DNA from: Candidatus Heimdallarchaeota archaeon
GTDB taxonomy: Archaea; Asgardarchaeota; Heimdallarchaeia; JABLTI01
Length of the DNA: 64,000 bases
Reading direction: 5' to 3'
Assembly: GCA_030614005.1 (NCBI GenBank)
Contig: JAUWKS010000002.1
Coordinates: 96,101-160,100, forward strand
In this document: positions 3,101 through 56,221 of the stretch, one piece after another
Position numbering within the stretch: the first letter of the stretch is position 1
Layout: each line of letters opens with the position of its first letter
Position numbers and translations under genes: made by a program
The notes under the pieces: model-generated
Databases searched by the model: none
Told to the model about the DNA's origin: nothing
Seen by the model: only the letters and a program-made list of their open reading frames with translations

Positions 3101-3122
3101 TAATGTTAGGTTCTCAATAGTA

Positions 3123-3197
3123 TCCCATGTGGAGCGTCGTGAATCACTGTAAGTGATGAACAGCGACTGCATGAGTCTGCTCCGAGCAAGAGCATTG
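3123..3197. ncRNA. Candidate structured non-coding element at the 3' edge of duplication unit A
   Basis: 75 nt, GC-richer than its surroundings, and able to form nested hairpins (tggagc...gctcca; atcact-gta-agtgat; gcgtcg/cgactgc). The flanks are 100% identical to the copy at 61722-61796. The central hairpin carries 6 substitutions, including one compensatory pair. Confidence 0.3.
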
Positions 3198-25733: not shown

Positions 25734-26738
25734 CTATGTTAACGCTTTTTTCTTTTCGCTACTCATGCTAGTAATTCGATGCATCTCAGCATCTCTGATA
25801 GTGTTAAGATCTTCATCTTCTTCATCTATCGATGTTGAGACATTTCTTACTAGGTATACTTTTTCTCTGCTAATTTTCAACCATTGATTGTAGTAGCTAG
25901 TTATTGCAAGATTTACCATTAGTAGTAAGTGGTTTTTGAGTGAGTTTCTTGCATATCTAAAAGACACTACTACTCTATCTAATTCTATAGATTTGAGTAT
26001 ATAATCATACAGTTTATTGGTTGATTCTTGTCTTGCCTCTATTTCTTTTGCTAATTTAACAAAGTCTATCTTACCGTTTTCGAAATCATATCGTCCCTTT
26101 GTCAAATAGCTGGTTTTTCTGTTCATGTATGCCGCTACTTGGTCGAAGTATCTTACTATTGGGTGTAAATTATTCCCTTTTATTTTCCTCACATGATGAT
26201 TTTGACATGCTTCTCTTATTTCCTCATCATTGATTTCTACTTCTTGGAAAATCTTACTCATATGCCTCTCTGTATGCACAAAATCATGAAGCATCAGAGC
26301 TCGAAGTAATCTTTGTAGTTTCTTAGGATAATTTGTTCCCAAACCCTTTCGTATTCTGAATTTCTTTCGTTTTGGTTCTGAAGGTATTTTCTTGTATTTT
26401 TCTTCTTTATACTCTAACCACTTTACTTTTCCAAGGCCATCATTCTTTTTACTTCCTAGATATTCCTTCCTAAGATATTGTTTGATTGTTTCTTTTCCTC
26501 GAGTTTCATTACAATCTACTGTTGTTACTCTTACGAATCCTCTATATGCTAGGTATTCATCGGGTATTTTTCGTTCCCCTTTAATCAATTTTCCAACATA
26601 ACTTTTGAGTGGTTTTTCATTTGTTTCTAATTCTCTAACTATTCTTATCCAGACCTTTCCTTTCTTAAGAAGTGGTTTTGAAGCAATTATTGGTGAGAGT
26701 AATTCACCAGTCAGAGTATAGAGTGTTCTTATTTCCAT
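25734..26738 (-). CDS. RAMP-like/HD-like fusion protein, copy 2 (divergent; lacks the CxxC pairs)
   Basis: 334 aa; G-rich loop LGSKKNDGLGKVKW, then LMLHDFVHTERH...ACQNHH...NHLLLMVNLAITSYY, collinear with 778-1917. Confidence 0.45.
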   Translation of the reverse strand: MEIRTLYTLTGELLSPIIASKPLLKKGKVWIRIVRELETNEKPLKSYVGKLIKGERKIPDEYLAYRGFVRVTTVDCNETRGKETIKQYLRKEYLGSKKNDGLGKVKWLEYKEEKYKKIPSEPKRKKFRIRKGLGTNYPKKLQRLLRALMLHDFVHTERHMSKIFQEVEINDEEIREACQNHHVRKIKGNNLHPIVRYFDQVAAYMNRKTSYLTKGRYDFENGKIDFVKLAKEIEARQESTNKLYDYILKSIELDRVVVSFRYARNSLKNHLLLMVNLAITSYYNQWLKISREKVYLVRNVSTSIDEEDEDLNTIRDAEMHRITSMSSEKKKALT

Positions 26739-27508
26739 GCTTTCAACACCTCATCCATCTCTTTCCAGAGATTTTGTTCTGATTCTTTTTCGATTACTTT
26801 TCCTTTCTTTACAGTTCTCGTCCTTGTTACTTCTTGCAAATTCACTTCTAGTAGGTCTATTTTCCCAGCACCGTTATTTGCCGATGCACCCCACCGTATT
26901 TCGGGCATGTAAAGAATACTTTTCAAAAGGAATCCTAGTAACTCTTGATCTAGCTCTTTTAGTAGTTCGATCTCCAAGTTAAATTCACCAGCAATGAATC
27001 GTTCTCTAAAATCTTGTGTGCTTCTCTTTGAATCTTTCATTAGAGCATTTCGTATTTCAGTAGATAGATGTACTTTCTGTGCGTCATTAATTTCTTCTTT
27101 GATGTTATCGGATGTTATTATCACAGGATTAAATCTCACTACGGATTGTTTCTTTAAGGACCCCATTAATTTATGTCTAATGCATTCTTCTTCTGGATAG
27201 CATGAACCATTAAGATGATACCCTTCAGGTAGTAATGGTTCTCCTTTCTGTGTTGTCTTTTTATCAGATATGTGACATACTTCTATTTCTCTTTGTTTTG
27301 CCAGTTCCATCATTGCGTGATTCAATACGCCTCTTAATCCTTTTACTAAGTATCTCTTACCCTCTTTTCCACCATTTGGATTATAGACTAATAGCAGATT
27401 TTTCATATTCCCTCTTGCCATCTGACCATTTCCAGGTTTCGCTATGGAGGTTCTAACAGTTATTTTTATTCGCTTAAACGTTCGAGAGACAAACATAAGT
27501 TTCACCAT
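26729..27508 (-). CDS. Cas7-like RAMP protein, copy 2 (divergent)
   Basis: 259 aa with RYLVKGLRGVLNHAMMEL (G-x-LR motif). The N-terminus RTFKRIKITVRT is collinear with the copy 1/3 N-termini. It overlaps the downstream RAMP-HD gene by 10 nt. Confidence 0.5.
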   Translation of the reverse strand: MVKLMFVSRTFKRIKITVRTSIAKPGNGQMARGNMKNLLLVYNPNGGKEGKRYLVKGLRGVLNHAMMELAKQREIEVCHISDKKTTQKGEPLLPEGYHLNGSCYPEEECIRHKLMGSLKKQSVVRFNPVIITSDNIKEEINDAQKVHLSTEIRNALMKDSKRSTQDFRERFIAGEFNLEIELLKELDQELLGFLLKSILYMPEIRWGASANNGAGKIDLLEVNLQEVTRTRTVKKGKVIEKESEQNLWKEMDEVLKAWK

Positions 27509-27608: not shown

Positions 27609-27785
27609 TTGGCAGAAAATGATGAAGCGGTGTTAATTTATTTCAAAAGAAAAGTAGGTAAAATTGGTGACAGTTTACATATTACAATACCTAAAGAAAT
27701 CGTAGAGGCTCTAGACATTAAACAGGGAGACACTTTGGGAATTTTTGCAAAGGATTACAAAACAATCGAAGTGAAAAAACAATGA
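27609..27785 (+). CDS. AbrB/SpoVT-family DNA-binding protein, copy 2 (probable TTG start)
   Basis: In-frame translation LAENDEAVLIYFKRKVGKIGDSLHITIPKEIVEALDIKQGDTLGIFAKDYKTIEVKKQ, homologous to 2912-3100. It is below the 60-aa ORF cutoff and has no ATG. The TTG at 27609 follows a stop. Confidence 0.5.
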   Translation: MAENDEAVLIYFKRKVGKIGDSLHITIPKEIVEALDIKQGDTLGIFAKDYKTIEVKKQ

Positions 27786-28231
27786 GTTTAACAACAACTG
27801 AATGGATAACAATAGGATTTAGTATAACCAATACACTACTTGCTTTTGCAGTTTTCATATATATATGGTATACAAACAAGACAAAAGGTCCTAGAATATC
27901 TATTGTTGATTATATCTCAAGAAAAATGGATTCTGATGAGATAACTATTAATTTTCGATATGTAAATAGTGGAGATACAAAAACTATTTTGATTTTTACT
28001 GGGTTTATTGAATTTAGAGATCAAGCATTTGAAAGTTCAGTTACAAAAAAAGAAGCAATAAGTCCAGTAAAAGAGATACAACAAAATCATGTACATTTTA
28101 AAAATTCACTTCCGCAAGGGGGGATTGTAATCGATGAGACAATATTACAAATTAGAGGATATTATTTTGATCATAATGGAAAGAAGAAAAAATTAAAACA
28201 AAAACCAATTCAACTAAATGAAATAAAGTAA
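27782..28231 (+). CDS. Membrane-anchored hypothetical protein
   Basis: 149 aa with an N-terminal TM helix. Its start overlaps the AbrB-2 stop by 4 nt. Confidence 0.4.
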   Translation: MSLTTTEWITIGFSITNTLLAFAVFIYIWYTNKTKGPRISIVDYISRKMDSDEITINFRYVNSGDTKTILIFTGFIEFRDQAFESSVTKKEAISPVKEIQQNHVHFKNSLPQGGIVIDETILQIRGYYFDHNGKKKKLKQKPIQLNEIK

Positions 28232-28282: not shown

Positions 28283-29857
28283 TTGACAGTACTCAATTGG
28301 CAGAATGATCCAATATACTTTGATGATGTATCTAAAGAAGTCAATCACTGGATAAATGCCAATGAGTTGATGGAAAATAATCGACAAGTGGAGATCTTTC
28401 TTCCAAACACAGAAACACTCAATCTTTTCCCGATCCTAGTACGAAGAGCGGATTTTCTCCGGGTAAACTCTTCCGATCGCATCCTTGCCAGGTTGCCTTT
28501 CATACAGCTTACAGAGAAGGAAAAGGTACTATTCAAAAACCAAGAATTACTCGTATCCGAAAAATTGCGTGATTACTTTTACCAATCTGATAATCGCAAG
28601 ATCCTTGAGTGGCGAGACATCCTTCGGAACTATCTTGAGCGTGGAGCCATTCCTTTACCGTTCTTCCGTTGTTATCCTGATGAGTGGGGGCTCGATTTCC
28701 AAGACCGAATCCTTGAATTCTCTCGAGGGGAAACTTTTGCAATGCCTACTAGGTTAACTACTGAGCTTGCTTATCTTTGTGGCATGGTCAATGGTGATGG
28801 CAATCTCACTAAATATGTTCTCAATATTGTTGATTATTCCATTGAAAACATTCGACAGTTAAAGGAACAGTTCGAACGATTATTCCAACAAACAGGAAGG
28901 ATTCAACTACAAACGGAGAATTGCCCAAAACTCATTATTACTAATCTCTGGGTTGCACGTTTATTTTCCTTTCTTACGGATCAACCAATTGGTGGTAAGA
29001 AGTACAGTAATTTACGTGGACCACTACTCTTTCTAGAGCAACCCTTACGTTCGCACTATTGGTCGGGAGTTATGGATGCGGATGGAAGTTATACTAATAG
29101 AAACATTACATTTACAAGTGCAAGTAAAAATTATACGCAAGATTTTATCTCATTTATGAAATCAATAAGTATTCTAGCAAAACAGTATTCGAGAAATGAT
29201 GGAACGTTTCAAGTATATATTTCAAGAAAATTTCATGATATATACAAGTCACAATTATTATGTTTACACCCTGAAGAGAAATTACAATTTAATAAATTAC
29301 AAAAGGGAATCAGTAAAAACTATGGTGTACGAATCAGAAAAAAATTTGTTGATTTTGATAAAGATAAGATGATAAACGGTTTTTTTGACTTTAGATTCCT
29401 TACACAAGTCCATATTATTGGCTTAGGAGATTTTCTTCGAATCGAAAGAGAAACTAAAACCTTAAAGTCCTTTTCAAAAGAATTAGGAGTGAGTGATAGT
29501 TTTCTCTCAATGCTTGAAAACGAAAGAAGTGCAATACCAATTGAATTATTATTGAAAATCCTTCAAAGAAAAAATAAACAATTAATGCATTTTCTTTTGT
29601 TAAATAAACAACACATTCTCTATAGAAAGGGAAGTTCCAAACCTATTAAATTAAATTTGAAACCTAACAAAGAGCTTCTCTATTTGGCTACAAAAATGAC
29701 TTTCCACAAAGCTTCTATTAGTTTACCTTTAAAAAAGCAAGATTTACAAGATAAAATTACAGACCGTTTTGGAGTTATTATAAAGAAAAATAGAATTGAT
29801 AATAAATTACTTCTCTATTATTTTACTACTTTTTGTAAGCTAAAAAAAATTGATTGA
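28283..29857 (+). CDS. LAGLIDADG-motif protein with C-terminal HTH, paralog 1 (TTG start)
   Basis: 524 aa with two LAGLIDADG-like motifs (LAYLCGMVNGDGNL; HYWSGVMDADGSY) and a C-terminal XRE-like HTH (KELGVSDSFLSMLENERSAIPIELLLKIL). Paralogs at 31689-33260 and 46645-48273. Confidence 0.6.
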   Translation: MTVLNWQNDPIYFDDVSKEVNHWINANELMENNRQVEIFLPNTETLNLFPILVRRADFLRVNSSDRILARLPFIQLTEKEKVLFKNQELLVSEKLRDYFYQSDNRKILEWRDILRNYLERGAIPLPFFRCYPDEWGLDFQDRILEFSRGETFAMPTRLTTELAYLCGMVNGDGNLTKYVLNIVDYSIENIRQLKEQFERLFQQTGRIQLQTENCPKLIITNLWVARLFSFLTDQPIGGKKYSNLRGPLLFLEQPLRSHYWSGVMDADGSYTNRNITFTSASKNYTQDFISFMKSISILAKQYSRNDGTFQVYISRKFHDIYKSQLLCLHPEEKLQFNKLQKGISKNYGVRIRKKFVDFDKDKMINGFFDFRFLTQVHIIGLGDFLRIERETKTLKSFSKELGVSDSFLSMLENERSAIPIELLLKILQRKNKQLMHFLLLNKQHILYRKGSSKPIKLNLKPNKELLYLATKMTFHKASISLPLKKQDLQDKITDRFGVIIKKNRIDNKLLLYYFTTFCKLKKID

Positions 29858-29975
29858 AGAAATAAATTATAATATTTCAGAAACAATAGAAGTGAATTGA
29901 TTACTAACTATTTTTGAAATAAACTATTGGGTATTAGATATTAACTGTATACAACAACACAATAAAAACAATTCT

Positions 29976-30056
29976 AGCCATCTGCCCGTTACCAGGTTTC
30001 GCTATTGATGTTCTAGCGGTTATTTTTATTCGCTTAAATGTTCGAGAGACGTTCAT
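29976..30056 (-). pseudogene. Truncated Cas7-like gene remnant (N-terminal ~27 codons only)
   Basis: Reverse translation MNVSRTFKRIKITARTSIAKPGNGQMAR matches the N-terminus of 26729-27508 (MFVSRTFKRIKITVRTSIAKPGNGQMAR) with ~85% nucleotide identity, after which the homology ends. An AbrB-like gene lies divergently 124 nt away. Confidence 0.5.
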
Positions 30057-31688: not shown

Positions 31689-33260
31689 TTGACGGTACTC
31701 AATTGGCAAACGGATCCAATTTATTTTGATGTTGAGGATAAACCGGTCAATCAATGGATAAATGCCAATGAGTTAATAGAAAGCAATCATAGAGAAGAGA
31801 TCTTTCTTAATAGCATTAGTATTCTCAATCTGTTTCCTATCCTCGTTCGCAGGGCTGATTTTGTGCGGGAAAACCATTCTGACCGTATCCTTGCCCGTTT
31901 ACCATTTGTGCAGCTAACTGAGGAGGAAAAAGAATTTGTCAGTAATCAAGATCTTCTCGTCGCTGAGAAATTGCGTGATTATTTTTATCAATCGGATAAT
32001 CGTAAGATCCTTGAATGGAGGGATGTTTTGCGAAAGTATCTCGAGCGAGGTGCTGTCCCCCTGCCCTTCTATCGCTGTTTTCCGGAAGACCTCGAACTTA
32101 ATTTCCATGAAAGAATCCTTGAATCCTCTCGAGGGGAAACGTTTGGTATGCCCACTACTTTGACTAATGAATTAGCCTACCTTTGTGGTATGGTCAATGG
32201 TGATGGTAGTCTCACTAAATATGTCCTCAATATCATAGATTATTCCATAGAAAATATTAGACAACTAAAAGAACAGTTCGAGCGATTATTCCGGCAAACT
32301 GGTAGAATTCAGATGCAAACTGAGAACAGCCCTGCTTTAATTATCACTAATCTTTGGGTTGTCCGCTTTTTCTCGTTTCTGACAGATCAACCAATAGGAG
32401 GAAAGAAATATCAAAATCTTAGTGAACCACTCCTTCTCCAAGAACAACCATTCCGTTCCCATTATTGGTCTGGTGTGATGGATGCAGACGGGAGTTATGC
32501 AAATGGAGGAATTTCTTTTACTTCTGCCAGTAAACATTATGCAAAGAAATTCAGTGATTTTCTGGAATCACTGACAATAAAACCAACTTTTTTTGACCGT
32601 CCAGATAACACTTTTCGAGTTTATATTCCTCGAAAGTTCAATTTATTGTATAAGAGCAAAATGTTTAGTTTCCATCCTGAAAAGAGATTAGAATTCCAAA
32701 AGCTGAAAGAAGGAAGAGAGAAAAAAGCTAAAGTAACATATCTATTTCAAGAATTTAATCAAAATACTATGAGAAATAATTATTTTGATTTTAGTTTAAT
32801 GATAGACATACAAGTCACTGGATTAGGAGAGTATCTAAAAGAAACTCGAAATAACTTAACTCAACATGAATTTGCTCAGAAAATAGATGTAAGTACGAAG
32901 ACACTTCAATTGATGGAAAAAAATAGAAGTGCAATTTCCCTTAATACTCTAGAAAAAATTCTGTTAAAGCAAAAAAAATCCTTGATGCAATTTTTAATGT
33001 TCTATGGACGTCAAATCCAATTTAGAAGATTTAGAGCTCCACCAGTGTTTCTTGATTACAGACCATCTAATCAATTGAAATATTTTGCTAAAAAAATGTT
33101 GTTTTTTAAAAATCATATTCGAATTGATAGCAAAGATAAGAAATTGAATTCCCAAATTGAAAATCATTTTGGTATAAAGATAGAAAACAATGTCATTAAC
33201 AATGGGGTTATTAGATACTTTTTCAAAACATTTTGCAATCTTACAAAACAAGAAGACTAG
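31689..33260 (+). CDS. LAGLIDADG-motif protein with C-terminal HTH, paralog 2 (TTG start)
   Basis: 523 aa, collinear with paralog 1 (LAYLCGMVNGDGSL; HYWSGVMDADGSY). The N-terminal third is ~80% identical to paralog 1 at nucleotide level. Confidence 0.6.
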   Translation: MTVLNWQTDPIYFDVEDKPVNQWINANELIESNHREEIFLNSISILNLFPILVRRADFVRENHSDRILARLPFVQLTEEEKEFVSNQDLLVAEKLRDYFYQSDNRKILEWRDVLRKYLERGAVPLPFYRCFPEDLELNFHERILESSRGETFGMPTTLTNELAYLCGMVNGDGSLTKYVLNIIDYSIENIRQLKEQFERLFRQTGRIQMQTENSPALIITNLWVVRFFSFLTDQPIGGKKYQNLSEPLLLQEQPFRSHYWSGVMDADGSYANGGISFTSASKHYAKKFSDFLESLTIKPTFFDRPDNTFRVYIPRKFNLLYKSKMFSFHPEKRLEFQKLKEGREKKAKVTYLFQEFNQNTMRNNYFDFSLMIDIQVTGLGEYLKETRNNLTQHEFAQKIDVSTKTLQLMEKNRSAISLNTLEKILLKQKKSLMQFLMFYGRQIQFRRFRAPPVFLDYRPSNQLKYFAKKMLFFKNHIRIDSKDKKLNSQIENHFGIKIENNVINNGVIRYFFKTFCNLTKQED

Positions 33261-33688
33261 CTTAATTAGGATTATTTTAAGTAATGTTATTAGAAAAAAG
33301 TAAATAACTTATAGCTCTGCTATCGCAGATTCGCGGTCACTACAAGCCCACTTACAGTGGTCTTGCTTAACGTTCTAGCGCGAGATTCTATTAAATACTA
33401 TATCTCAAAAGAAAAAATGATGAATAAAAATGAGTAGTGGTATGTTCAATACAACAAGAATAAAAACTTTGGAAAGTCAATTAAAAGAAGTTATAGAAAA
33501 GCTCGAATTACTTGAGAAAAGAATTACAGCACTAGAATCCAAGTGAAATTTTTCTACAAAGTTTATTTGTTTTTTAAATAGAAATGCAATCCGATGAAAC
33601 TAATATACAAGAGGGGTTTATTTAGTCAGGAGAAGGGCTAAGAAAGGGAAAAAAGGCATTCTTAGAGCGGAGAGAGTGGGTAAAAGAA

Positions 33689-33853: not shown

Positions 33854-34639
33854 ATGTCGGTTAAGAAAAGTCTTATCTTGATGGAGGGGGATAGGTATAG
33901 TTTCGCTGAGTTGAACATCAACGTTAAACTCACTCCTGTTATGGAGGAGGTGCTATGGACTCTCCAAGTGTTGTTTATCCTACTTTTCACATCATCTTTT
34001 ATCAATATAGTAAAATTTCTTTGTCGGTTTTTGAACCGTTCACCTAAAGCTATTGGTTCTACCTTGCAATCCCTTGCAGATCTTGGTCTTATTGACTATT
34101 ATCGTTCTGGTCGCAGTCGAGTGGTCAAACTTCACTTCGAACACCCATTTCTTGCAAGTTCTCTGTTCCGGTTCTTTGGTTTCAATACCTGGTTACTAGA
34201 CCAAAAGAGTGCAATAAGCGAGGGTGACCATCATCTCTTTGGCTTTCTTCCATCAGAGAAGAATGTCCAAAAGTTCTTTGCTTTCCTGCAACTAAAAGAA
34301 CAACAGCTAGATGCTAAGATTGCTGATTATCAAGAGTGGATTGATTGGGTGCTGAAAGTAGAATATACAGTAACTACTGCAAAAGATGTCCTTGTTGAAG
34401 ATTCAGAAGAGACGGCTGAACATCCTATTCATTTGTTCGCTGAGGAGATCGTCTCTCGAATTAAACAAGCAGAAGTTCCTCAAGTAAACCATCTAGACAT
34501 CATAAAACTCACTAATGTTATTCTCTCTGTTTTTGCTGATTATCGAGAGGAACCACCCTGGATTGACGAGGCCTATCTCCGGCAACAAGCTTTTCTGAAA
34601 GGTGACGAACAATTGGAGGGATTGTATGAGAACAAATAA
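33854..34639 (+). CDS. Winged-helix-containing hypothetical protein (first gene of Cas1-like operon)
   Basis: 261 aa with a wH-like segment (KAIGSTLQSLADLGLIDYYRSGRSRVVKL). It overlaps the next gene by 38 nt. Confidence 0.4.
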   Translation: MSVKKSLILMEGDRYSFAELNINVKLTPVMEEVLWTLQVLFILLFTSSFINIVKFLCRFLNRSPKAIGSTLQSLADLGLIDYYRSGRSRVVKLHFEHPFLASSLFRFFGFNTWLLDQKSAISEGDHHLFGFLPSEKNVQKFFAFLQLKEQQLDAKIADYQEWIDWVLKVEYTVTTAKDVLVEDSEETAEHPIHLFAEEIVSRIKQAEVPQVNHLDIIKLTNVILSVFADYREEPPWIDEAYLRQQAFLKGDEQLEGLYENK

Positions 34640-36626
34640 GAACGAGCTCCGTGATTTGGTTGCCTCTTGGGTGGATGCCCTTGATGGTCCTGCTCAAGCT
34701 GTCTCGAGTAAGGAGCTTACTATTCGTTTAGATAAAAGTCATTCTCACATTTGTCAGATTTTACGAACCCTTGCTGTTCAGGGAAGAATTACCTATATCA
34801 ACGGCAAGCGTTCTCTTGACCGTTCTGTTCGACTATATTATAGTGCTGAATGCTCTACTGAAGAAGAAAGTTCATTTTGTAGCCGTCCCACTTGTGGCTC
34901 TTGTCAGTGGTTATCGGAAATCCAGAGATGTATCTTATTGGATCTTGTTTTTGAAAGCAATCCTTCTGTTTTACCACCCGAGTTGAAACTAAGAGCTTAT
35001 GTACAGGAAATACCGCTTAATGCCCCTTGCTGTGATCATTTCGATAAACGAGTTGCAGGGCAAGTAAAGAGCAGACATATGTCTCGTTTTATTCGTGAGA
35101 ATACTGATGGTTCACTCTTTCTTTGTCCAATTGAACGTTGTCGTCAAGTTATCGATGAATTCAGTTTCTACCTTCAAACTATCAATCTTGGTTCTAGTAC
35201 TTTTTATTGTCCTCATTGTGGCAGCCCAATGGTCTTTGGGTATGATGAACGGTTTGATGATTATCGCGTCTTTTACTGGGATAGTCATTTTGATATCCTT
35301 CAGCAGAGCTTTTTCGAGTTAACTGGTACAACACTAACTCGAGAGAAGAAGCAAAAGGATGAAGTAAAGGTTGGTATATCCATCATTAAACCGAACAGTT
35401 TCACTCCTGATACTAAACTAGAGAATTTGTTTATTGGTAGCAAGACCTCTCCGGAAGAATTGGTATTCTCCAAAGATTTGACCTTCTTTCCATTTAGAAA
35501 AATAGGTTATATCTACTCCAAGCATTGGGAAGATTATTTCACACTCAAAGACTCATTGCATCCCATTGATCCTGTAAAAGGACGGAAGCTCTATCAAAAT
35601 ATCGAATTATTTCCTCCTATTGATCCAATAAAAAGTGTTGAACCTATTGCTCGAGAGGTTGGTGGAAATGAATTACTCATTGCTAGTGGTTTTCTTACTT
35701 TCCCATCTTTTCAGGCTAATCTGACCACTCGAGTAGCTTTGATTGAATCGAAAATAAGAGAATTTGTTGATTTGGATCTGAAAGGATTCTTTACTGAATC
35801 TCTTCAGCAAATGAAAGATACTATACGCAGCTACCAACACTTACGTGTTCTAGATCACTTACAATGGCAAAGATATGAAGGAGGAGTTAGTAGTTTAATG
35901 ATCGAAGCTCTTAAGCGCGAAGCACAGAAATATGGCTTTCTTACACCTGCCCGATCGAAATCTCGTATGGTACGTTATGATCGTTTTCTTCCTTTTGGCT
36001 TATATTATGCTCGTTCTGCTTATGATTCTTTAATCAATGGTGTCAATCATGTTATCACAACAATTTTGAAAAAAGACATCTACAATGAAATCTCTCTTGC
36101 GTGGGATGGATTACGTGGTTGGTGTCACAGAAAATACCCTATTGGTCTCTATTTAGATACTATTGAACAGGCGAAAATTATTGCTTGGCTTTGGATCCAT
36201 GAAGCAATACGAGACAGAGAAATTCAACCCAGTGATTTTCAAATCAGACGAGGAAAACGATATGAACTGTATTACTGCGTAATTCCGAATTCGAATCTTC
36301 ATACACTCATCAGAAAGATTGGTTTACAGGCACTGAAAACAACCATTCGCTTAGCAACAGGTGAAAGTATGAGTCTGAAACGAACATATGAGAAATATCT
36401 GAAACAGCAGAAAGAACTCATAAACAAATTTGCTATTCATTCTTCAGAATTATTATGCACTAATTTATCGGAAAATAAGCAAATCACTCTCTGGAAGAAA
36501 TTAGAGCAAACCAAGAATAGAGAACTATTAACCTACCAAGAACTACAACAATTACATTCATTCTCTCAAGAGTTCTTTACTAACGAGTTTTCTTTCGAAC
36601 CTTTGGCAATAGTTGAGGTGTGTTAG
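34602..36626 (+). CDS. Winged-helix + Zn-finger + Cas1-like integrase-fold fusion protein
   Basis: 674 aa. There is an N-terminal wH (HICQILRTLAVQGRITYINGKRSLDRSVRLYY), then several Cys pairs (CSRPTCGSC; CCDH; CPIERC; CPHCG). The C-terminal ~250 aa align to Cas1 core motifs. These are MIEALKREAQKYGF (E-site, cf. EGxAAR.YF), SLINGVNHVITTIL (cf. NALLSFGYTLL), ISLAWDGLRGWCH (cf. GLDPYLGFFH catalytic His) and LYLDTIEQAKIIAWLWIHEAIRDREIQPSDF (cf. LALDLMEEFRP..LVL.LLNRRELTADDF, catalytic Asp). Alignment was done by eye. Confidence 0.5.
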   Translation: MTNNWRDCMRTNKNELRDLVASWVDALDGPAQAVSSKELTIRLDKSHSHICQILRTLAVQGRITYINGKRSLDRSVRLYYSAECSTEEESSFCSRPTCGSCQWLSEIQRCILLDLVFESNPSVLPPELKLRAYVQEIPLNAPCCDHFDKRVAGQVKSRHMSRFIRENTDGSLFLCPIERCRQVIDEFSFYLQTINLGSSTFYCPHCGSPMVFGYDERFDDYRVFYWDSHFDILQQSFFELTGTTLTREKKQKDEVKVGISIIKPNSFTPDTKLENLFIGSKTSPEELVFSKDLTFFPFRKIGYIYSKHWEDYFTLKDSLHPIDPVKGRKLYQNIELFPPIDPIKSVEPIAREVGGNELLIASGFLTFPSFQANLTTRVALIESKIREFVDLDLKGFFTESLQQMKDTIRSYQHLRVLDHLQWQRYEGGVSSLMIEALKREAQKYGFLTPARSKSRMVRYDRFLPFGLYYARSAYDSLINGVNHVITTILKKDIYNEISLAWDGLRGWCHRKYPIGLYLDTIEQAKIIAWLWIHEAIRDREIQPSDFQIRRGKRYELYYCVIPNSNLHTLIRKIGLQALKTTIRLATGESMSLKRTYEKYLKQQKELINKFAIHSSELLCTNLSENKQITLWKKLEQTKNRELLTYQELQQLHSFSQEFFTNEFSFEPLAIVEVC

Positions 36627-37338
36627 TGGAGAAAGGAATATGAGCAATACAACTATAGAAATAGAGAATCCCCTGCAAAATTTGCATGAGAAGATCATTT
36701 ATCTGATTCAAAACAAGGACTTCAAAATAACAAAAGAAAAAAATCAAAGAATTCTAAGTGAAGCTATCAAGAAAATTGCTCAAAATGGATTTTTAAGAAC
36801 ACATGCTTTTCTTCACAATTGGTTGAGAGAATTTTTCGAAGAAGGAGAACTAACGAGTAAAAGCTTACTGAATATACGCTCTTCACTTCCTTGGTCCTGG
36901 GATCAGACCAAGAAGTATTTTGATGCACTTGAAAGAAATAAGGTATTGATTTACTCTCGAGACTCCATTGGGAAAAAGATTTGTACTCTCACTATTACAG
37001 ACCATTTGGGAGAGGGTGTAAATAGTATTCCAACCCAAGAGCTTCGGTTATTCTATTATCTAAAGTATCAGAAAAACATACCAACAGATGAATTTGCTAA
37101 TCTAAAATCGAGAATTGGAAATTACTATTCAAAACTAGAGAATTTTGAACAAATGAAATCAAAAGTAGAGAAAGAAAAAGAGAAATTTCAATCCACTGAG
37201 ATGAATCATATAAAATTGCTTGCAGAAGAAATTGCTACCTTTTATTGGCACAATAGAACAAAGAAGGGAATAGTCAATGATATAGAAGAAATGTTAGTGG
37301 AAAGACCAACAACCATCTTTTCTTTGGAATACAGGTAG
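36613..37338 (+). CDS. Hypothetical protein (possible winged-helix), third gene of operon
   Basis: 241 aa; overlaps its upstream neighbour by 14 nt and the downstream gene by 1 nt, so it is operonic. No recognisable Cas2 features. Confidence 0.4.
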   Translation: MRCVSGERNMSNTTIEIENPLQNLHEKIIYLIQNKDFKITKEKNQRILSEAIKKIAQNGFLRTHAFLHNWLREFFEEGELTSKSLLNIRSSLPWSWDQTKKYFDALERNKVLIYSRDSIGKKICTLTITDHLGEGVNSIPTQELRLFYYLKYQKNIPTDEFANLKSRIGNYYSKLENFEQMKSKVEKEKEKFQSTEMNHIKLLAEEIATFYWHNRTKKGIVNDIEEMLVERPTTIFSLEYR

Positions 37339-38096
37339 TGAGAGTTATGGTTGTACTTGACTATGAAATAAATTTGAGTAAAACAGAATACTTGTATTAT
37401 CTTGAGTGCCCACAAAAATTCCGTATACATCGAATACTAAATCCAATTCCATATAAGACAACTTTCATGAATACAAAAAGAAGCACTTCTAGTTATGTTC
37501 TGCGTAATTATGATGAAGAAAATTTGAATGGAATATTCAAACATTCATTCTTTGAAACGTTTCATAAAAAATATTGGAATAGAATCACTGAACCAGAAAC
37601 ACCAAAAGAAATTGCTAGCAATCAAATAAAATTATTCTATTGGTTGTATCAACAAAGAAAATATTTCGAAGATTCTGATTACTGGATACCTGTTCAAACA
37701 GAATTACGATTAATGACAGAAAGACAGAGAGGGATAATCGATTGTGTGGAATTGTGTAAGAATAAAAATGGATTAAGAATAATTGACTATAAATCTGAAC
37801 CACATCAAAGTGATATGCTAGCACTGATATTCTATGCAAACTTGTTTAACACCTTTAGAGCTGAAGACAAGGAATATGATGAATACTTGTATGATGTTGT
37901 AGAGATTGGTTGTTATTATTATATATCAGGAATTGAGAGAATCTTTGAATTAAAAGTAGATAATCTATTATCTTTTCAAGAAATTTTCCAACGGATACTC
38001 ACTGAGATTTCCCAAGAGAAATTTCCATTAATCGAAACTTCTTGTTGGAATTGTAAATTAATAGATGTTTGTAAAATTGAGAAAAGAAGAAGGTAA
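37338..38096 (+). CDS. Cas4-like PD-(D/E)XK nuclease with 4-Cys Fe-S cluster signature
   Basis: 252 aa with an N-terminal Cys (YYLECPQKF). RecB-type motifs GIIDCVEL...RIIDYKSE follow (hhhD..E ... hhDhK). A C-terminal CWNCKLIDVC supplies the remaining three Cys, matching the Cas4/AddB C-x(n)-CxxCx5C arrangement. Confidence 0.5.
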   Translation: MRVMVVLDYEINLSKTEYLYYLECPQKFRIHRILNPIPYKTTFMNTKRSTSSYVLRNYDEENLNGIFKHSFFETFHKKYWNRITEPETPKEIASNQIKLFYWLYQQRKYFEDSDYWIPVQTELRLMTERQRGIIDCVELCKNKNGLRIIDYKSEPHQSDMLALIFYANLFNTFRAEDKEYDEYLYDVVEIGCYYYISGIERIFELKVDNLLSFQEIFQRILTEISQEKFPLIETSCWNCKLIDVCKIEKRRR

Positions 38097-44184: not shown

Positions 44185-44832
44185 ATGAAGTTCTCTCCTA
44201 GGCTATACTTTGTTCATCTGTTATATTAATCTTTTTTTTATAAAGTTGAATTTTTTTCTAATTATCTTTTTATCCGGTTATGTTTCTTACTTTATCCATT
44301 TTCGAGCTGAACGAGCTCTACGATATAGCATTGCTCATGCTGAAGAATAGATGCATCTCAGCTTCCCTAGTAGGTTGGAGTTTTCCTCTTTTCCTTACCG
44401 ACGTTGAGAATATTTTCCACCTAAATAAGAATTCAAGCGGATTGCAGAAGGAGGAAATACAGTAAAAGTGGGAAACCAACACCAAAAGCAAGTAGGGATG
44501 CAAATGAAACAAAATATTTCACCCATTTCTTTGTTACTGTTCTTACATATCCGGCCGATCTTCTCGAGATAGAATATTTCCTAAATTGCCAATTTGTTAA
44601 AGGTGTTACCGGTGGATCATATTTCTTTCCTTGTGGTTTTTCTGTAATGCTTAGTAAATGATTCCAAGTTTTCACTTGTAAAATACATCGATACTCTTCA
44701 AATGGGCTATAACCAAGTTCTTGGTCCTTCGTTTTGTTGTAGTATTTTTCCCCTTTCTTTTCTATTTCTGTGAATTCATGTCCGGGAGCTTCTATTGTTG
44801 ACCGTTCCTTTTTTTATGGACAAATAGGACAT

Positions 44833-46473
44833 TTATCCATCACCAGTCACCACAACAAGTCCAGAGGATTTGTTGCAGCTCATCTCTGAGCCCCCACTAG
44901 GAATAGTTGAGTGGAGGGTTCCCGAGTCCATGTAGGGCACGGGGCTAGTGTCTTTAAGACTTTTAATTTTAACATAATCTATGAAGCTTGCACGATAAAT
45001 GTTCACAGAAGCATTATAGTCTCTGTCTGCAGTGAAACCGCATTCGGGGCAGTGGAAGAAGCGACCACATTTGTTCTCTAACAGATTGTTTGGTCCTTTC
45101 ACTTTCAAGCCTTTTGCGCTGCATCTTGAGCAGTGACTGGAAGTATTCCAAGGACAAACTTTCACAAGTGTTAGCCCTTTTTGTCGGCACTTGTAGTCTA
45201 GGAGGAAGACTATTCTTCCTCTTAGCCAGTAGCTTAATTTTCTTGACCAGGATCTCTTTCCACGAGGAGGTTTGTAATCTCGCAGGTCTTCGATAGCGAT
45301 TTTTGTGCACTGCCATTTTTGGGCAATTTCTATGAGCTTGTTTGTTGTATAATGAGCCAATTCTTCTCCTAAGCGATTTCTTTTTTGGTAGAGCTTGCTT
45401 CTCTCTTCTTCTCTTCGAGCGACTTTTATTTGCTTGCTTGGTCTTTTCTTTTTCTGCTTGGATAGTTGTCGTTGTATGCCGGCAATATGCCCATATAGTC
45501 TTTCTATGTGCCTGTATTGTCCACCGATCATATTGATGAAAATTGGCTTGGAAATTTGTTTTCCATCCTCACAAACCACACATGTAGCCACTTTTTTCAA
45601 ACCAGGATCTACTGCAAGCACTCGCTCTTTTCCTTCTTTTGGTATCGTTTCTCCTGGGTATTCCCATGGAAACTGTAAGAAGAAGTATTCGAGCCCTGCT
45701 TTCAAGTTCTTGGTTCGCAAAGTAGGTTTTAATGGTTGAGGATATATTGCTTGTGCGATTTTTTCTTCTATTTTTTCGGGCACGAACAGTGTTTGTTCTA
45801 TCCAAACCCAATCGCTTCTCTTTTTTGGTTCCAAACTTGTTGGTAGCTTTATCTCTAGATTGATGGTTTGTTTTTCTACAGTATATTTTATTGCTTGGTC
45901 ATCATCTGGTGCGTAAGGGAAAGTGTATCGTTTTATTTTTGGTTTCACAAAGTCTGTGTAAATGAAATTAGAAAATGCCTCTCCGAGTCTTTGGTGCAAA
46001 TTCTTTATCATTTCTATTGTTTGCTCGATCATGACTTTCTTGTATCGGTAGTAAGTTTTTTCACCATTCTTTGCGGTATTTCTGCAGTGCTGTCTTACCA
46101 CTGAAACCAATTTTTGTTCTGTTGTTTGTATCCCTAACCACTCGACTATTTGGATGCAATCATAGTAACAGCTCATGCGCTTATGTTGTCCTCTAATTAT
46201 TCGTCCTACCCATTCTGTTACTCCTCTTAGTACCCTGGAGGGAAGATATACTCCTTCTGTTTTCGCTTGTGCTTCGTTGATTGCTTTGTATGCATTGAGT
46301 TTGCTTTCACCTATCCTTGTTATCCATTCTTCTGACCATATTTTATCGAGGAGGTCTTGAGCAGTTTTTGTCGTTAACTCTTTGAACCAGTTTAATCTTT
46401 CATCTTGTGTCATTTTGAATTGGTAGCTATTGATTGGATTATTTTTGTTTCTCTTTTTCTTGTTGGAGGACAT
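44833..46473 (-). CDS. tnpB: TnpB-like RuvC/Zn-finger nuclease (IS200/IS605 family OrfB, IS1341-type; OMEGA effector)
   Basis: 546 aa with RuvC-I (LAVDPGLKKVAT), RuvC-II (IAIEDL) and the C-terminal Zn finger plus RuvC-III (CSRCSAKG...FHCPECGFTADRDYNASVNIYRA). No tnpA is adjacent, and no CRISPR array was seen. Confidence 0.75.
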   Translation of the reverse strand: MSSNKKKRNKNNPINSYQFKMTQDERLNWFKELTTKTAQDLLDKIWSEEWITRIGESKLNAYKAINEAQAKTEGVYLPSRVLRGVTEWVGRIIRGQHKRMSCYYDCIQIVEWLGIQTTEQKLVSVVRQHCRNTAKNGEKTYYRYKKVMIEQTIEMIKNLHQRLGEAFSNFIYTDFVKPKIKRYTFPYAPDDDQAIKYTVEKQTINLEIKLPTSLEPKKRSDWVWIEQTLFVPEKIEEKIAQAIYPQPLKPTLRTKNLKAGLEYFFLQFPWEYPGETIPKEGKERVLAVDPGLKKVATCVVCEDGKQISKPIFINMIGGQYRHIERLYGHIAGIQRQLSKQKKKRPSKQIKVARREEERSKLYQKRNRLGEELAHYTTNKLIEIAQKWQCTKIAIEDLRDYKPPRGKRSWSRKLSYWLRGRIVFLLDYKCRQKGLTLVKVCPWNTSSHCSRCSAKGLKVKGPNNLLENKCGRFFHCPECGFTADRDYNASVNIYRASFIDYVKIKSLKDTSPVPYMDSGTLHSTIPSGGSEMSCNKSSGLVVVTGDG

Positions 46474-46644: not shown

Positions 46645-48273
46645 ATGCAAGACTTTCTCAATTGGCGAACGGATCCATTACTAGTGGATATTGAACCTGC
46701 CAGACCTAACCAATGGTTCACAGCAAATGAGTTAATAGAGGGAGATAGAAGAGATTCATTCATAACACCGGAAAATCAATTGCTTCTTTATCCAATCATG
46801 ATCCGAAAAAACGATTTCATAACCGGGGAACGAATCTTGCAATCGTTTCCATATATTCTATTAGACACTAGAATAATTTCCAAATGTCGTAAACAATCTC
46901 TTGCATTAGCAGAAAAAACCCATTATTATTTTCAAGGCTCTAATTATAATCATTCTATTCGTGATTGGCAGAAAAAGTTCATCAGTTATTTAGAAGAACA
47001 ACAACGCCTGCCTTTTCCTCTATTTCGACTTTATGATGATTGGTTAGATTATATAAAAGAGAAAAAATTTGCTCGATTCCAATCTGCTCGAGGAGAGAAT
47101 TTTCAATTACCACTTTATCTTTCCGAGGACTTGGCTTATCTTTCCGGTGTGGTTATGGGTGATGGTCATCTGGCGGAATATTTTGTTAATATCATTGATT
47201 CTTCAAAAGAGCACATTCTAAATTTAAAAGAAAAGCTTGAAGAGCAATTCAATTCCAAAACGGAATTTTTCAAACAACCAAACGCTAAAGCTTGGAATGT
47301 CAATATTCTAGGTAAATGGATCGTTCGCTTCTTTAACTTTATTTTATCACAACCAATTAAAGAGAGAAAATATCCTGCTCTTAGAGAACCATTTATTTTT
47401 CGAGAGAATGAGTATTTTCGCAGTAGGTTTTGGTCAGGATTGATGGATGCAGATGGTACCTATAAAAGAGTTATTGGATTTAGTTCTGCATCCAAACAAC
47501 TTCGATCTGACTTTTCTAATTACTTAGATGAAAACAATATAAAACATCGATTTTATGAGTATAGTGTTTTTGGTGGAACTACTTTTAGTATAACTATTGC
47601 AGGTCATTCAAGAAAGCCATTTGCTCAACAAATAGGTTCAAATCATCCAGATAAACAACAAGAACTGCAGTTACTATTACAGAAAAAAGTCTATCGATTT
47701 TCACCTCGAATTACTACTCTCAGAAAAAAAAACTCATGGAACGAGCAAGTTCAAGACTTTTCTAAAGATGCAATCCTTGATGGTTTTTTTAATCTTTCAT
47801 TAATTACCACTCTACAAATTTTAGATTTAGGTAGTGATATAAAATCACTGCGAAAAAAGCACAAGGAAAAACAAAAAGAATTAGCTTCATATTTAGAGAT
47901 TACCCCTAGTTTACTTTCAAAATATGAATTAAATAAAACAGCACTTCCAATTTATATTCTTAAAAAGATACTTTCAAAATACAATGTTTCATTTAATCAC
48001 TTTTTTTCTCAATTAAGTAATTTAATTTTCCGTTCTACAAGTTCTAGTTGTCAGTTTCCATTAAAACCAGAAGAAAGGTTATTGACTTTAATTAGAGGAT
48101 TACAAATTATGCCAGAAAATTATTTTCGAGTTATAGGATTGAGAGAAGTGTCAATTGAACATTATAAGAAAGAAATTAGTGATTATTTTAAAATTAATGA
48201 ACCTATAACAGATGTTTTTCATAACGCTTGTTTAGTTGAATTGATTCGATCATTTTGCTTAATCCGAAATTAA
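46645..48273 (+). CDS. LAGLIDADG-motif protein with C-terminal HTH, paralog 3 (more divergent)
   Basis: 542 aa with LAYLSGVVMGDGHL and RFWSGLMDADGTY motifs and a C-terminal HTH-like region. The N-terminus MQDFLNWRTDPLLVD parallels MTVLNWQNDPIYFD of paralogs 1/2. Confidence 0.55.
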   Translation: MQDFLNWRTDPLLVDIEPARPNQWFTANELIEGDRRDSFITPENQLLLYPIMIRKNDFITGERILQSFPYILLDTRIISKCRKQSLALAEKTHYYFQGSNYNHSIRDWQKKFISYLEEQQRLPFPLFRLYDDWLDYIKEKKFARFQSARGENFQLPLYLSEDLAYLSGVVMGDGHLAEYFVNIIDSSKEHILNLKEKLEEQFNSKTEFFKQPNAKAWNVNILGKWIVRFFNFILSQPIKERKYPALREPFIFRENEYFRSRFWSGLMDADGTYKRVIGFSSASKQLRSDFSNYLDENNIKHRFYEYSVFGGTTFSITIAGHSRKPFAQQIGSNHPDKQQELQLLLQKKVYRFSPRITTLRKKNSWNEQVQDFSKDAILDGFFNLSLITTLQILDLGSDIKSLRKKHKEKQKELASYLEITPSLLSKYELNKTALPIYILKKILSKYNVSFNHFFSQLSNLIFRSTSSSCQFPLKPEERLLTLIRGLQIMPENYFRVIGLREVSIEHYKKEISDYFKINEPITDVFHNACLVELIRSFCLIRN

Positions 48274-48593
48274 AGTAATGTTTTGATTCTAGACAAAAAA
48301 AAGTTAATAATTCGCACTTTGGGGTGCGTTCGCATCGACGCTACTCATCGCTTACAGCGATTCCTCACGCGTCAGAGCGATTTTCTATTAGTTTTTTGTA
48401 TAAAAAAGTCAAAAGTTTTGAAATACAGCTAATCAGAAAGGAATGTCATTATTTTTGACGTTTATAAATGAAATAGATTTTTGGGCTTTTTTAGTCATTT
48501 TTAAAGAAAATTGGCTAGTGTTTAATAGTTAAGGGTTAAATTTCAGGAAATTAGCAAAAAAGACTGAAAAAAGTGTTAAAATGAGGTTTTTCT

Positions 48594-55700: not shown

Positions 55701-55914
55701 AATAAAGCCGGGCAAGATTTGGCTTCCTGTTATTCTCCCTGAAACTCATCTTGTTATTGGCCATGTTCATCTCCGATTTTATAATGAACGCTTTCGAGTT
55801 TATGGTTCTGGTCACTGGACAAAAAAAGGTGACCCTTACAATCAACGATGCATGATAATTCTTGACCCTAATTCTTTAGATGTGCCAAAAATCGTTTCAT
55901 TTGATAACTATTAG
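52738..55914 (+). CDS. SF2 DEAH-type helicase fused to MZB/DUF1998-like Zn-binding domain and C-terminal calcineurin-like metallophosphoesterase
   Basis: 1058 aa with Walker A GGTYSGKSLS, motif II LVFDEIH, motif III SSAT and motif VI QRMARNRS. The 4-Cys cluster TDCSCENGCKNCYGE is DUF1998/MZB-like. Phosphoesterase motifs are AFSDIHL, INGDLLD, FVHGNR and VIGHVHLR. Confidence 0.7.
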   Translation: MIFMVKSSYIFNKKEIFPINPGKPRKWITIHNLPATEPRKITGLTWQEVLPGYAQALAEVIEEITGSKNPYEHQEQAIKHLLNNSANKKCLDLIIKGGTYSGKSLSFIVPGIIKQINEETDFTVIFYPSKQLLLDQFERVKEYLVKFEEKTGIRLICEKYSGDTGNTNYSKGVARVNDQELNNLEQNPPNVLLATFDKFWHHYESGNSSPLIKKIASANYLVFDEIHAFDGYAAGNIKGFIAIHKKANPQGQFILSSATIANVEGFRDDFLPNAKIITCPPVRGEQVYVGTTIEHTVSLLADFWKEMEKMPGKTGLVFLDSKENIELLTDLLCRKLKQDDPFFDPDTVQMIHADLEYYHRKRVQDELRKGNRNIIRILISSSVLELGVNIPNIQTVFNIGIPITQKDGIIQRMARNRSVPGERRTNVFLFDLSKKRDSFYWNNKEILKDILETNACNPILYPKLNPKILAGQIILHLRYGINDFGEIMQFFLDQGPQVYRLARQQYTKLVSLNVLKKSSDGKVLFTSQGEKKLKVQAKKKNHLVPFSIRAIKNNWSIKKKFGESSYWHENRKSSLGKISTKDVLKKGLPDNIITRNKKQYLVTDKDQQLRTIYVKELLSKEKSAGNFSGITNRLLDPQITPGVFSKKVKGTKIVDISFGQVSIKQQPLAIVNSNPEKISSNNTHVKDNKNFFWQELTPKRSEELANTEKSDGLAITLTSDIPKPKELTTKKLLEYFGRVLQVEIETVLSIPGSEFALAINTNQLAIYDKGDPNGNSEYLFSHLQKVAARTLKRLTDCSCENGCKNCYGEILGLFPKGVKESLKILFKDLTLISEVEFDDELLHEINPEQMNFKENRIIAFSDIHLTNKLCFQEEFFEALKEQSKQADIIIINGDLLDTISEDSYQAFSEFKSMAIREGFWSKLVLIRSSSIHDGNLEQFTGFLHQDYVEVEIGSEQVLFVHGNRIGINPSLVDKTSIGKAVFEAKKALIKPGKIWLPVILPETHLVIGHVHLRFYNERFRVYGSGHWTKKGDPYNQRCMIILDPNSLDVPKIVSFDNY

Positions 55915-56221
55915 TAACTTTTTTTCACATTTATCTTATGTCCTATTTGTCCATATTTTGTGGCAACAGTTGACACCCTTAATTATATCACTTGTTTTCA
56001 GAACAGAATAATTTCTTCGTTCCATACCTGTTAATTTCAAGCCGGTTAGAAAAGCAATTAACCCTAGAGTAGGTCCGATGAACACAATAATAGCTATTAC
56101 ATTCATAGTTTCCACGACAAAACTCAACTCTGTAGTGATTAGGATGTTATTTCTACTATTTGAATTATGCCACAAATTACTTGCAGTCTATATTTGCTAT
56201 TTTTGACTTTATTCAGTTACT

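Follow-up and report, generated by a model that had tools for sequence, protein, structure and literature searches.

LAGLIDADG-helix-turn-helix proteins lead Cas1-homolog modules in Asgard archaea and may act as their DNA-cutting partner

The 64,000-nucleotide stretch of DNA analysed here (the window; Candidatus Heimdallarchaeota archaeon, assembly GCA_030614005.1, contig JAUWKS010000002.1, positions 96,101 to 160,100 of the forward strand) carries three paralogous genes whose products join a double LAGLIDADG core to a helix-turn-helix (HTH) domain, and it raises the question of what such a protein, LHTH hereafter, is for. The initial annotation took the three genes for a proliferating selfish family, with domesticated DNA-binding proteins tied to the neighbouring cassettes as the alternative. 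We found that LHTH is an integral, co-diversifying gene of modules encoding aCas1, a highly diverged Asgard homolog of Cas1, and we tentatively favor a role for it as the subunit that would recognize and cut DNA in those modules. The three genes are as follows.

28283..29857, plus strand: LHTH paralog 1 (p1), 524 aa, TTG start; N-terminal domain, double LAGLIDADG core, HTH_3 and C-terminal domain.
31689..33260, plus strand: LHTH paralog 2 (p2), 523 aa, TTG start; lead gene of a type A aCas1 module.
46645..48273, plus strand: LHTH paralog 3 (p3), 542 aa, ATG start; within an 11.1-kb element bounded by terminal inverted repeats (TIRs).

Coordinates, Pfam matches and motifs all agreed on three paralogs with a shared N-terminal domain and a double LAGLIDADG core, as first described, and a search of the six-frame translation of the window with a family hidden Markov model returned exactly three copies and no LHTH remnants. 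As proteins, p1 and p2 are 59% identical, while p3 is 31-32% identical to either. All three exceed the Pfam gathering cut-offs for LAGLIDADG_3 and HTH_3 (23.4-36.1 bits across the three copies for HTH_3, cut-off 23) and carry the motifs LAYLCGMVNGDG, YWSGVMDADG and, at the N-terminus, LNW..DP...W.NANEL; weak NCBIfam matches were to intein-bearing forms of VatA and RpoA'', i.e., to intein endonuclease segments. The TTG starts proposed for two of the genes are backed by the alignment of homolog N-termini and by a conserved GAGGAA 7-9 nt upstream. From N- to C-terminus, each protein has a domain of ~150 aa, a double LAGLIDADG core in a single chain, an XRE-type HTH and a last domain of ~80 aa; the HTH had been placed at the C-terminus, but it occupies residues ~380-445, ahead of that last domain.

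Profile searches and a structural model, the former proposed as a check at the outset, confirm a genuine double LAGLIDADG fold. In addition to the Pfam match, the LHTH family profile matched PI-PfuI (E=4e-7) and also TliVMA among PDB sequences, and a Foldseek search with the AlphaFold2 model (pLDDT 93.9, pTM 0.70) returned archaeal intein endonucleases with E-values down to 1.6e-9 as well as I-DmoI with a target TM of ~0.7. LHTH shares with I-DmoI, I-Tsp061I, PI-PfuI, PI-TkoII and TliVMA the two-motif core of alpha-beta-beta-alpha-beta-beta-alpha, present twice, with an acidic residue ending each motif; unlike I-DmoI it is 2.5-3 times larger, with the extra N-terminal domain, XRE-type HTH and C-terminal domain, and unlike homing and intein endonucleases it lies outside any intron or intein and is embedded in a conserved multi-gene module. 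In the alignment with PI-PfuI, the aspartates of GDG and DADG fall on the last acidic residue of its AGDG and DAEG motifs, respectively, which we take to be the catalytic residues D149 and E250. Alignment of 64 full-length homologs gave 25 invariant positions, including G171-D172-G173, D265 and D267, K240 and Y241, and many residues of the N-terminal domain; the aspartates that end the two motifs, D172 (GDG) and D267 (DADG), are present in 64 of 64 proteins at identities as low as 30%, which settles in the affirmative whether the acidic positions are retained. LAGLIDADG enzymes make site-specific double-strand cuts with 4-nt 3' overhangs, and the LHTH core, judged by its two motif aspartates, is apparently an active nuclease of this superfamily.

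The most conserved parts are the N-terminal domain and the first half of the LAGLIDADG core; variation is greatest in the linker, the HTH and the C-terminal domain. Neither the N-terminal 150 aa nor the last ~80 aa matched anything in Pfam, NCBIfam, PADLOC or PDB sequences. An origin of these two domains from a degenerate intein (Hint) was considered and rejected, as DSSP assigned them mainly helical structure and intein matches were confined to the endonuclease part.

A word-indexed search returned 96 homologs, the named ones all from Heimdallarchaeota or the 'Asgard group' except for one from Thorarchaeota; an exhaustive profile search of 1.84 billion representatives returned 92 clusters at E<1e-30; and a scan of one genome per species gave 37 loci. 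NCBI names some of the members 'LAGLIDADG family homing endonuclease'. The family appears to be confined to Asgard archaea, mainly Heimdallarchaeota, where a single metagenome-assembled genome (MAG) can hold as many as ~10 copies (12F4_9) or 7-8 (HM7_B34). Two loci, L005 and L014, come from a MAG labeled Bathyarchaeia (SMAG_U14241), and their sequences lie near those of Heimdallarchaeota loci; the label may reflect mis-binning or horizontal transfer.

When our own open reading frame (ORF) calls in the window and the 37 loci were clustered by BLASTP, LHTH proved to be a lead gene followed by one of three conserved gene orders. In type A (8 loci and window p2) it precedes c5, aCas1 (cluster C1big), c7 and a PD-(D/E)XK nuclease, all in the same direction. 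In type B (6 loci) it precedes the PD-(D/E)XK nuclease gene in opposite orientation, then c12, aCas1 and c6 in its own direction. In the long type (window p3, L026, L027, L031 and L045, the last on a 1.55-Mb Heimdallarchaeota contig) it accompanies an aCas1 of 1200-1400 aa and a DEAD/MZB helicase-phosphoesterase. Behind p2, the type A module of the window comprises:

33854..34639, plus strand: c5, winged-HTH (wHTH)-like, with a weak HVO_A0114-like match; second gene of the module.
34602..36626, plus strand: aCas1, 674 aa, with N-terminal wHTH, Cys clusters and a Cas1 fold (Foldseek; conserved E/H/D/(E,D)).
36613..37338, plus strand: c7, 241 aa; one segment is wHTH-like and shows a weak relationship to type B c6.
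37338..38096, plus strand: Cas4-like PD-(D/E)XK nuclease (PDDEXK_1 match; D135, K152, four Cys).

Pfam recognizes no domain in aCas1, and just 10 close homologs of it were found among 5.8 billion proteins. Its model is of moderate confidence (pLDDT 70), and 8 of the top 8 Foldseek matches were Cas1 or casposase; the pattern E...N...H-x(9-15)-D-x2-(E/D), presumably that of the Cas1 catalytic residues, is conserved in all three aCas1 subtypes. Conserved positions of the Cas4-like protein include D135 and K152 (D150-Y-K152 in the window) and the cysteines C24, C236, C239 and C245. Like c5, c12 is wHTH-like, and PDB sequence-profile searches with c16 and c7 gave no match.

Several observations tie LHTH to these modules. 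An aCas1 gene lies within 9 kb of 19 of the 32 full-length LHTH genes, most of the remainder being at contig ends; LHTH clades match cassette type; and pairwise distances of LHTH and of the adjacent aCas1 are correlated (Spearman rho 0.72, 171 pairs). Between L004 and L007, DNA homology runs from 190 nt upstream of LHTH to just past the Cas4-like gene, whereas the adjoining TnpB genes are not homologous in DNA, and because of these boundaries we take LHTH plus four genes to be the unit. What stands upstream varies: a divergent pair of RAMPa and RAMPb genes at 10 or more loci and next to p1, TnpB in 7 loci with p3 among them, or genes of NERD/NACHT type. Taken together, LHTH is an integral gene of aCas1 modules that has diversified with them.

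Conserved non-coding DNA accompanies the modules. A block of ~190 nt directly upstream of LHTH (window 46445-46644; L003 2255-2454; L004 and L007 9789-9988) is common to p3 and to type A loci whose LHTH is only ~32% identical to p3, and it forms the left edge of module homology. A second block lies directly upstream of c5 (240-290 nt upstream) in L003, L004, L006 and L007, which are type A loci without the RNA-like element described below, and an 18-nt exact match ties it to L001 11935-11952. A sigma-70 promoter scan was discarded as uninformative, the host being an archaeon. Two further loci show rearrangement or breakage: in L026 (6919-10890) LHTH and c15, a small wHTH gene, are duplicated as a tandem pair, and two independent assemblies of Gerdarchaeota aCas1 contigs (L043 and L044) both end ~300 nt upstream of c5, where LHTH or repeated elements would be expected, which suggests a repeat-induced assembly break.

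Are such modules mobile? The window is syntenic with L001, a locus from a different MAG, at ~75-85% DNA identity, and contains three blocks that L001 lacks. One of these (44808-55975) holds TnpB and, divergent from it, p3, aCas1-long and a helicase gene, and it splits a gene, c25, that is uninterrupted in L001 (269 aa):

44469..44807, minus strand: c25 3' fragment, residues 149-261 (c25 intact in L001).
44815..44832, no strand: left TIR (TATGGACAAATAGGACAT) of the 11.1-kb element, adjoining the TnpB stop codon.
44833..46473, minus strand: TnpB (OrfB_IS605 and Cas12f1-like TNB), inside the element and divergent from p3.
48594..52772, plus strand: aCas1-long, 1392 aa; the 674-aa aCas1 aligns through its Cas1 catalytic domain with residues ~947-1138, and E, H, D and E are retained.
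52738..55914, plus strand: fusion of DEAD/Helicase_C, MZB and Metallophos, 1058 aa, last gene of the element.
55938..55955, no strand: right TIR, perfect reverse complement of the left arm.
55975..56127, minus strand: c25 5' fragment, residues 1-51 (c25 intact in L001).

The TIR is perfect over 18 bp, exceeds in length every other inverted repeat that encloses an LHTH copy of the window, and has only two matches there at up to three mismatches (0.26 expected). The comparison with a related genome for empty sites, suggested by the initial annotation, therefore succeeded, with c25 of L001 as the empty site; mobility is real for p3, but what moved is the whole TIR element, the LAGLIDADG gene alone not being the mobile unit. 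In L009, a TIR of ~30 bp unrelated to that of the window encloses TnpB, LHTH, the PD-(D/E)XK nuclease, c12, aCas1 and c6 (8.5 kb), and in L011 the same TIR encloses the same module with other cargo (12.6 kb). At least two LHTH-aCas1 modules thus sit inside TIR-bounded insertions.

The TIRs of L009 (966-995 and 9427-9456) and L011 (7501-7521 and 20069-20089) resemble a tRNA 5' half (GGCCCGTAGCGCAGTCTGGACAGCGC), and ARAGORN found no tRNA gene at these positions. L020 carries a solo copy of the window TIR at 4263-4287, with one mismatch and preceded, like the window TIR, by seven T; no partner arm was present on its 12-kb contig and no other copy was found outside the window. The last gene of the p3 element (window 52738-55914) corresponds to L045 1552-4637, where helicase and phosphoesterase, fused in the window, are two genes (814 and 214 aa).

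The sequence of LHTH itself records exchange of one half of the protein. In DNA, p1 and p2 show 75% identity across an initial 864 nt, which extend from 12 nt before the start to ~codon 284, and ~55% thereafter; as proteins they are 73-85% identical through the N-terminal domain and first LAGLIDADG half and 25-37% beyond. The initial annotation had given ~80% DNA identity over the 5' third, which is right locally (78-82%) but understates the extent, ~55% of the gene at 75% overall. p1 is probably a recombinant, its 5' 864 nt p2/L001-like and its 3' half from another lineage. The L011 and L009 cassettes are 96% identical, and their LHTH genes are 74% identical over the 5' ~900 nt with 3' halves that cannot be aligned. 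Since both pairs show it, a breakpoint near codon 290 has recurred independently; the second beta-saddle, HTH and C-terminal domain, the half expected to recognize DNA, are exchanged as one unit by recombination.

The explanation that we favor, while holding it as tentative, is that LHTH is a sequence-specific DNA-recognition and cleavage subunit working with aCas1. Choice of the DNA site would fall to the HTH, the C-terminal domain and the second half of the LAGLIDADG core, and the conserved N-terminal domain and first half would bind conserved partners or else a half-site that is itself conserved. A staggered double-strand cut by the LAGLIDADG center would then leave 3'-OH overhangs, aCas1 would join these ends to the target, and the Cas4-like nuclease would trim them. 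Cas1-family integrases join 3'-OH ends to a target and cannot generate such ends, and LHTH, co-inherited with aCas1, is a testable candidate for the end-cutting activity of Cas1 elements that lack a polymerase. The swappable HTH and C-terminal half also suggests a natural exchange of DNA specificity, which is relevant to meganuclease engineering.

A number of points weigh against this explanation. The case for an active site draws on two motif aspartates of the LAGLIDADG center, and both cleavage by LHTH and its interaction with aCas1 are things that we infer from sequences and models. Regulators, too, typically combine a first-gene position with an XRE-type HTH. The p3 insertion was imprecise: ~290 bp of the target c25 are missing, and no target-site duplication was identified at the ends of the element. 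Type A modules, that of p2 included, have no terminal repeats, only chance-level matches of 10-16 nt, and may be immobile, which would weaken a purely transpositional role. Three loci have no aCas1 in the available flank (L017, with TnpB and LHTH only, L012 and L029), and all loci come from MAGs or metagenomic contigs.

Known systems offer partial parallels. Tn7 TnsA/TnsB is a functional analogy, in that a separate endonuclease subunit would assist an integrase unable to make all the cuts, the protein families being unrelated. Casposons resemble the modules in having a Cas1-family integrase whose catalytic residues are conserved and, at times, a Cas4-like nuclease and HTH or Zn-finger fusions; of TIRs, another casposon trait, there are examples at the p3 element, L009 and L011, and none around type A modules. 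The modules stand apart in the much greater size of aCas1, which bears a wHTH at its N-terminus as well as Cys clusters, and in having a LAGLIDADG nuclease. No PolB domain was found in the module ORFs with Pfam or PADLOC, the N-terminal ~550 aa of aCas1-long being without assignment. Another parallel is given by the TnpBs associated with Asgard Cas1 described by Altae-Tran et al. (2023; PMC10691335) as putative transposons in a repeat-flanked locus, with aCas1 proposed as transposase and with GTTCACTCA conserved downstream of tnpB, beyond a stretch that is hypervariable. The p3 element likewise has TnpB beside aCas1 between repeats (in order, TIR, TnpB reversed, LHTH, aCas1-long, helicase, TIR), and it adds an empty-site comparison; in the part of that paper available to us, a LAGLIDADG-HTH gene between TnpB and aCas1 is not described. 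GTTCACTCA is absent beside the window tnpB, its sole exact match in the window (39566) lying inside a NACHT gene and total matches being below chance. Aloposons (Wu et al., 2022) were considered and set aside, as neither LAGLIDADG nor Cas1 is mentioned there.

Of the other explanations, the one that survives best, though unlikely, is that LHTH is a WhiA-like transcriptional regulator that binds operators of its own module through its HTH and LAGLIDADG saddle, repressing or activating the aCas1 cassette and possibly divergent RAMP or TnpB genes too. WhiA (DUF199) is a bacterial transcription factor made of a domesticated LAGLIDADG protein and an HTH, and it has the same small N-terminal domain, double LAGLIDADG scaffold and HTH. 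LHTH stands first in its module and is often divergent from RAMP or TnpB genes, the conserved non-coding blocks lie directly upstream of it and between it and c5, and its HTH_3, with PDB profile matches to HipB, PezA and C.BclI, resembles that of HipB, PezA and C-protein regulators. The resemblance to WhiA itself is weaker: WhiA structures (3hyi, 8dy9_I) appear among the fold matches only at ranks 49-50 (E ~4e-5), the nearest folds being active endonucleases; WhiA_N, LAGLIDADG_WhiA and HTH_WhiA of Pfam matched none of the three paralogs; and the HTH is of XRE rather than WhiA type. WhiA has reportedly lost the motif acidic residues, which are invariant in LHTH, and the modules already carry two or three dedicated wHTH proteins. 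The earlier suggestion of domesticated DNA-binding proteins is thus borne out for the tie to the cassettes and not for a WhiA-like domestication, against which the strictly conserved aspartates speak.

Rather improbable is a second alternative, in which LHTH maintains the element in the manner of a homing enzyme, cutting sites that the aCas1 element does not occupy or from which it was excised and thereby letting repair restore it there. TnpB has an element-maintenance role in IS200/IS605, and LHTH would be its protein-guided counterpart. Kinship to homing endonucleases, the retained active site and the TIR-bounded position of p3 fit this proposal, as would a variable recognition half retargeted to new sites; LHTH adjoins TnpB in 7 loci, and in L021 and L017 the TnpB-LHTH pair, 79% identical in DNA, is kept even without the cassette. 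It is harder to reconcile with the many different contexts of the gene, which share no conserved flanking target sequence, with type A modules that appear stable and syntenic between MAGs, and with a strongly conserved N-terminal domain, suggestive of a partner protein, not of an enzyme acting on its own.

A third alternative concerns the RAMP genes, and here p1 is the relevant copy. The initial annotation had noted a truncated Cas7 remnant ~100 nt from one paralog and a possibly disrupted cassette, and both were borne out by the features around p1:

25734..27508, minus strand: RAMPa (25734-26738) and RAMPb (26729-27508, Csm3-like), an ARAMP-type effector pair, divergent from the 149-aa ORF and p1.
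27782..28231, plus strand: 149-aa ORF directly upstream of p1, in a block missing from L001.
29940..30056, minus strand: RAMPb remnant of ~41 codons (residues 5-45), 71% identical to a Csm3-like RAMP.

ARAMP is marked by two diverged homologs, one of Cas7 and one of Cas5; RAMPb matched Pfam RAMPs and PADLOC Csm3/Cmr1, and RAMPa, the putative Cas5-like member, matched nothing in Pfam or PADLOC. The remnant begins 83 nt past the p1 stop codon, and the 149-aa ORF and p1 occupy a second window-only block (27513-29979). In DNA the remnant is 88% identical to the 5' end of L001 RAMPb, whereas the intact window RAMPb is 72% identical to it; a paralogous block of RAMPa, RAMPb, the 149-aa ORF and p1 therefore replaced most of the orthologous RAMP pair. 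LHTH is missing next to two more RAMP operons of the window (778-2873 and 59365-61418). No CRISPR array was found in the window (TRF, Rfam), in the window plus 37 loci (k-mer spacing scan) or within 10 kb of any LHTH copy, nor were tRNA genes or Rfam families found near LHTH copies.

The LHTH module loci match published array-less loci with aCas1 and Asgard RAMP (ARAMP) genes, for which the primary source is Makarova et al. (2020, CRISPR J). Both have an array-less Csm3-like RAMP pair, a highly diverged Cas1, a PD-(D/E)XK nuclease and an Asgard-only distribution, and the window itself combines lack of an array with a distinct Cas1 homolog and an associated nuclease. ARAMP systems are described as type III-derived and called enigmatic (PMC8730458); their loci carry 'different nucleases' (PMC12669027), with HNH and PD-(D/E)xK nucleases and uncharacterised proteins named in the summaries. 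As far as the available text of these summaries goes, they mention neither a LAGLIDADG-HTH protein nor aCas1 co-diversification nor a structured RNA. The original ARAMP description may already show the gene, and if it was drawn there, only the points on mechanism, recombination, TIRs and RNA are new.

The structured RNA refers to a GC-rich RNA-like element, LDE, of ~84 nt, found at the following positions:

33314..33397, plus strand: LDE, ~55 nt past the p2 stop codon, with an invariant 33-nt core.
48311..48394, plus strand: divergent copy, 38 nt past the p3 stop codon (covariance model).
3111..3192, minus strand: divergent copy, ~240 nt upstream of the RAMPb/RAMPa operon 778-2873 (covariance model).
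61710..61791, minus strand: divergent copy, ~290 nt upstream of the RAMPb/RAMPa operon 59365-61418 (covariance model).
Other loci: L001 11629-11713; L014 11688-11771; L018 6616-6696; L038-L042.

LDE has a covarying structure of five helices around the invariant core CTACAAGCCCACTTACAGTGGTCTTGCTTAACG, and it is 82-88% identical among loci whose LHTH proteins are ~35-60% identical. In an alignment of 11 sequences, which was fitted to the model and spans few independent lineages, 97.9% of the cells are paired, and two-sided changes occur at 15 of the 22 pairs, compared with 26-44% paired and 0-2 pairs so changed in slid controls; E-values of the covariance model are rough. No Rfam or tRNA match was obtained for LDE. 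A metagenome scan added 5 copies, after which 8 of 8 lay 60-100 nt downstream of an LHTH stop codon, and a divergent copy detected with the covariance model in L018 lies upstream of c10; throughout, then, the element is found just downstream of LHTH or upstream of RAMP or c10 operons. Possible identities for LDE are an RNA that belongs to ARAMP/aCas1 loci, the leader of an operon or a site recognized by a protein; that LHTH modules and RAMP operons both have it is a hint that an array-less CRISPR derivative includes an RNA component.

In the third alternative, LHTH would be the effector nuclease of the ARAMP defence system, recruited or activated by the RAMPb/RAMPa complex, possibly loaded with the structured RNA, to cut invader DNA. 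That role has in its favor the divergent RAMP pair at 10 or more loci and next to p1, with its Csm3-like RAMPb, the absence of arrays, the 'different nucleases' ascribed to ARAMP loci in the available part of PMC12669027, the two-fold setting of LDE and a window that is a defence island. We nevertheless consider it improbable, since many LHTH-aCas1 modules have TnpB or NERD/NACHT genes upstream in place of RAMPs, the RAMP operons at both ends of the window lack an adjoining LHTH, co-diversification is with aCas1, and next to p1 and p2 the RAMP pair was swapped and the module kept. Least likely, and highly improbable, is that p1, p2 and p3 are homing endonuclease genes, free-standing and autonomous, which happened to land in a defence island, as the selfish family first proposed would have it: multiple copies, NCBI labels and the retained active site fit, but alignment of the three copies gave no common flanks, homing site or target halves beyond 12 nt upstream, LHTH is the conserved first gene of syntenic modules that co-diversify with aCas1 and whose borders take in four other genes, and it has an extra, strictly conserved N-terminal domain and no intron or intein context.

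Returning to LHTH as the cleavage subunit of aCas1 modules, a broader extension is possible but doubtful. LHTH and aCas1 would form a two-enzyme machine for DNA mobilization in which a LAGLIDADG enzyme of exchangeable specificity cuts out or opens DNA and a Cas1-family integrase pastes it, with Cas4-like trimming and a structured RNA shared with Csm3-like RAMP operons. Such a machine could be a casposon-like transposon without PolB or a system for exchanging cassettes, and it would represent an extant intermediate linking Cas1 transposons with CRISPR adaptation modules. The setting in Heimdallarchaeia adds interest, as mobile elements and defence systems there bear on gene flow near the archaeal-eukaryote boundary.

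Three other features of the window concern the surroundings of these genes. The third block lacking at the syntenic position of L001 (38097-44383) carries a 1747-aa NERD-NACHT (NLR-like) gene and a 159-aa ORF, and it is a separate insertion, with the Cas4-like gene on one side and the p3 element on the other. A YokU-like gene (30408-31163, minus strand) and a DUF4258 gene (31291-31605, plus strand) form a divergent pair between the RAMPb remnant and p2, which looks like a toxin-antitoxin pair and is found at the same position in L001 and L005. A tandem array at 17368-25311, upstream of the RAMP pair, comprises five paralogs of 436-535 aa, in a copy number unlike that of L001; 3 of the 5 have NosD/right-handed beta-helix domains, and the genes with these domains probably encode surface proteins.

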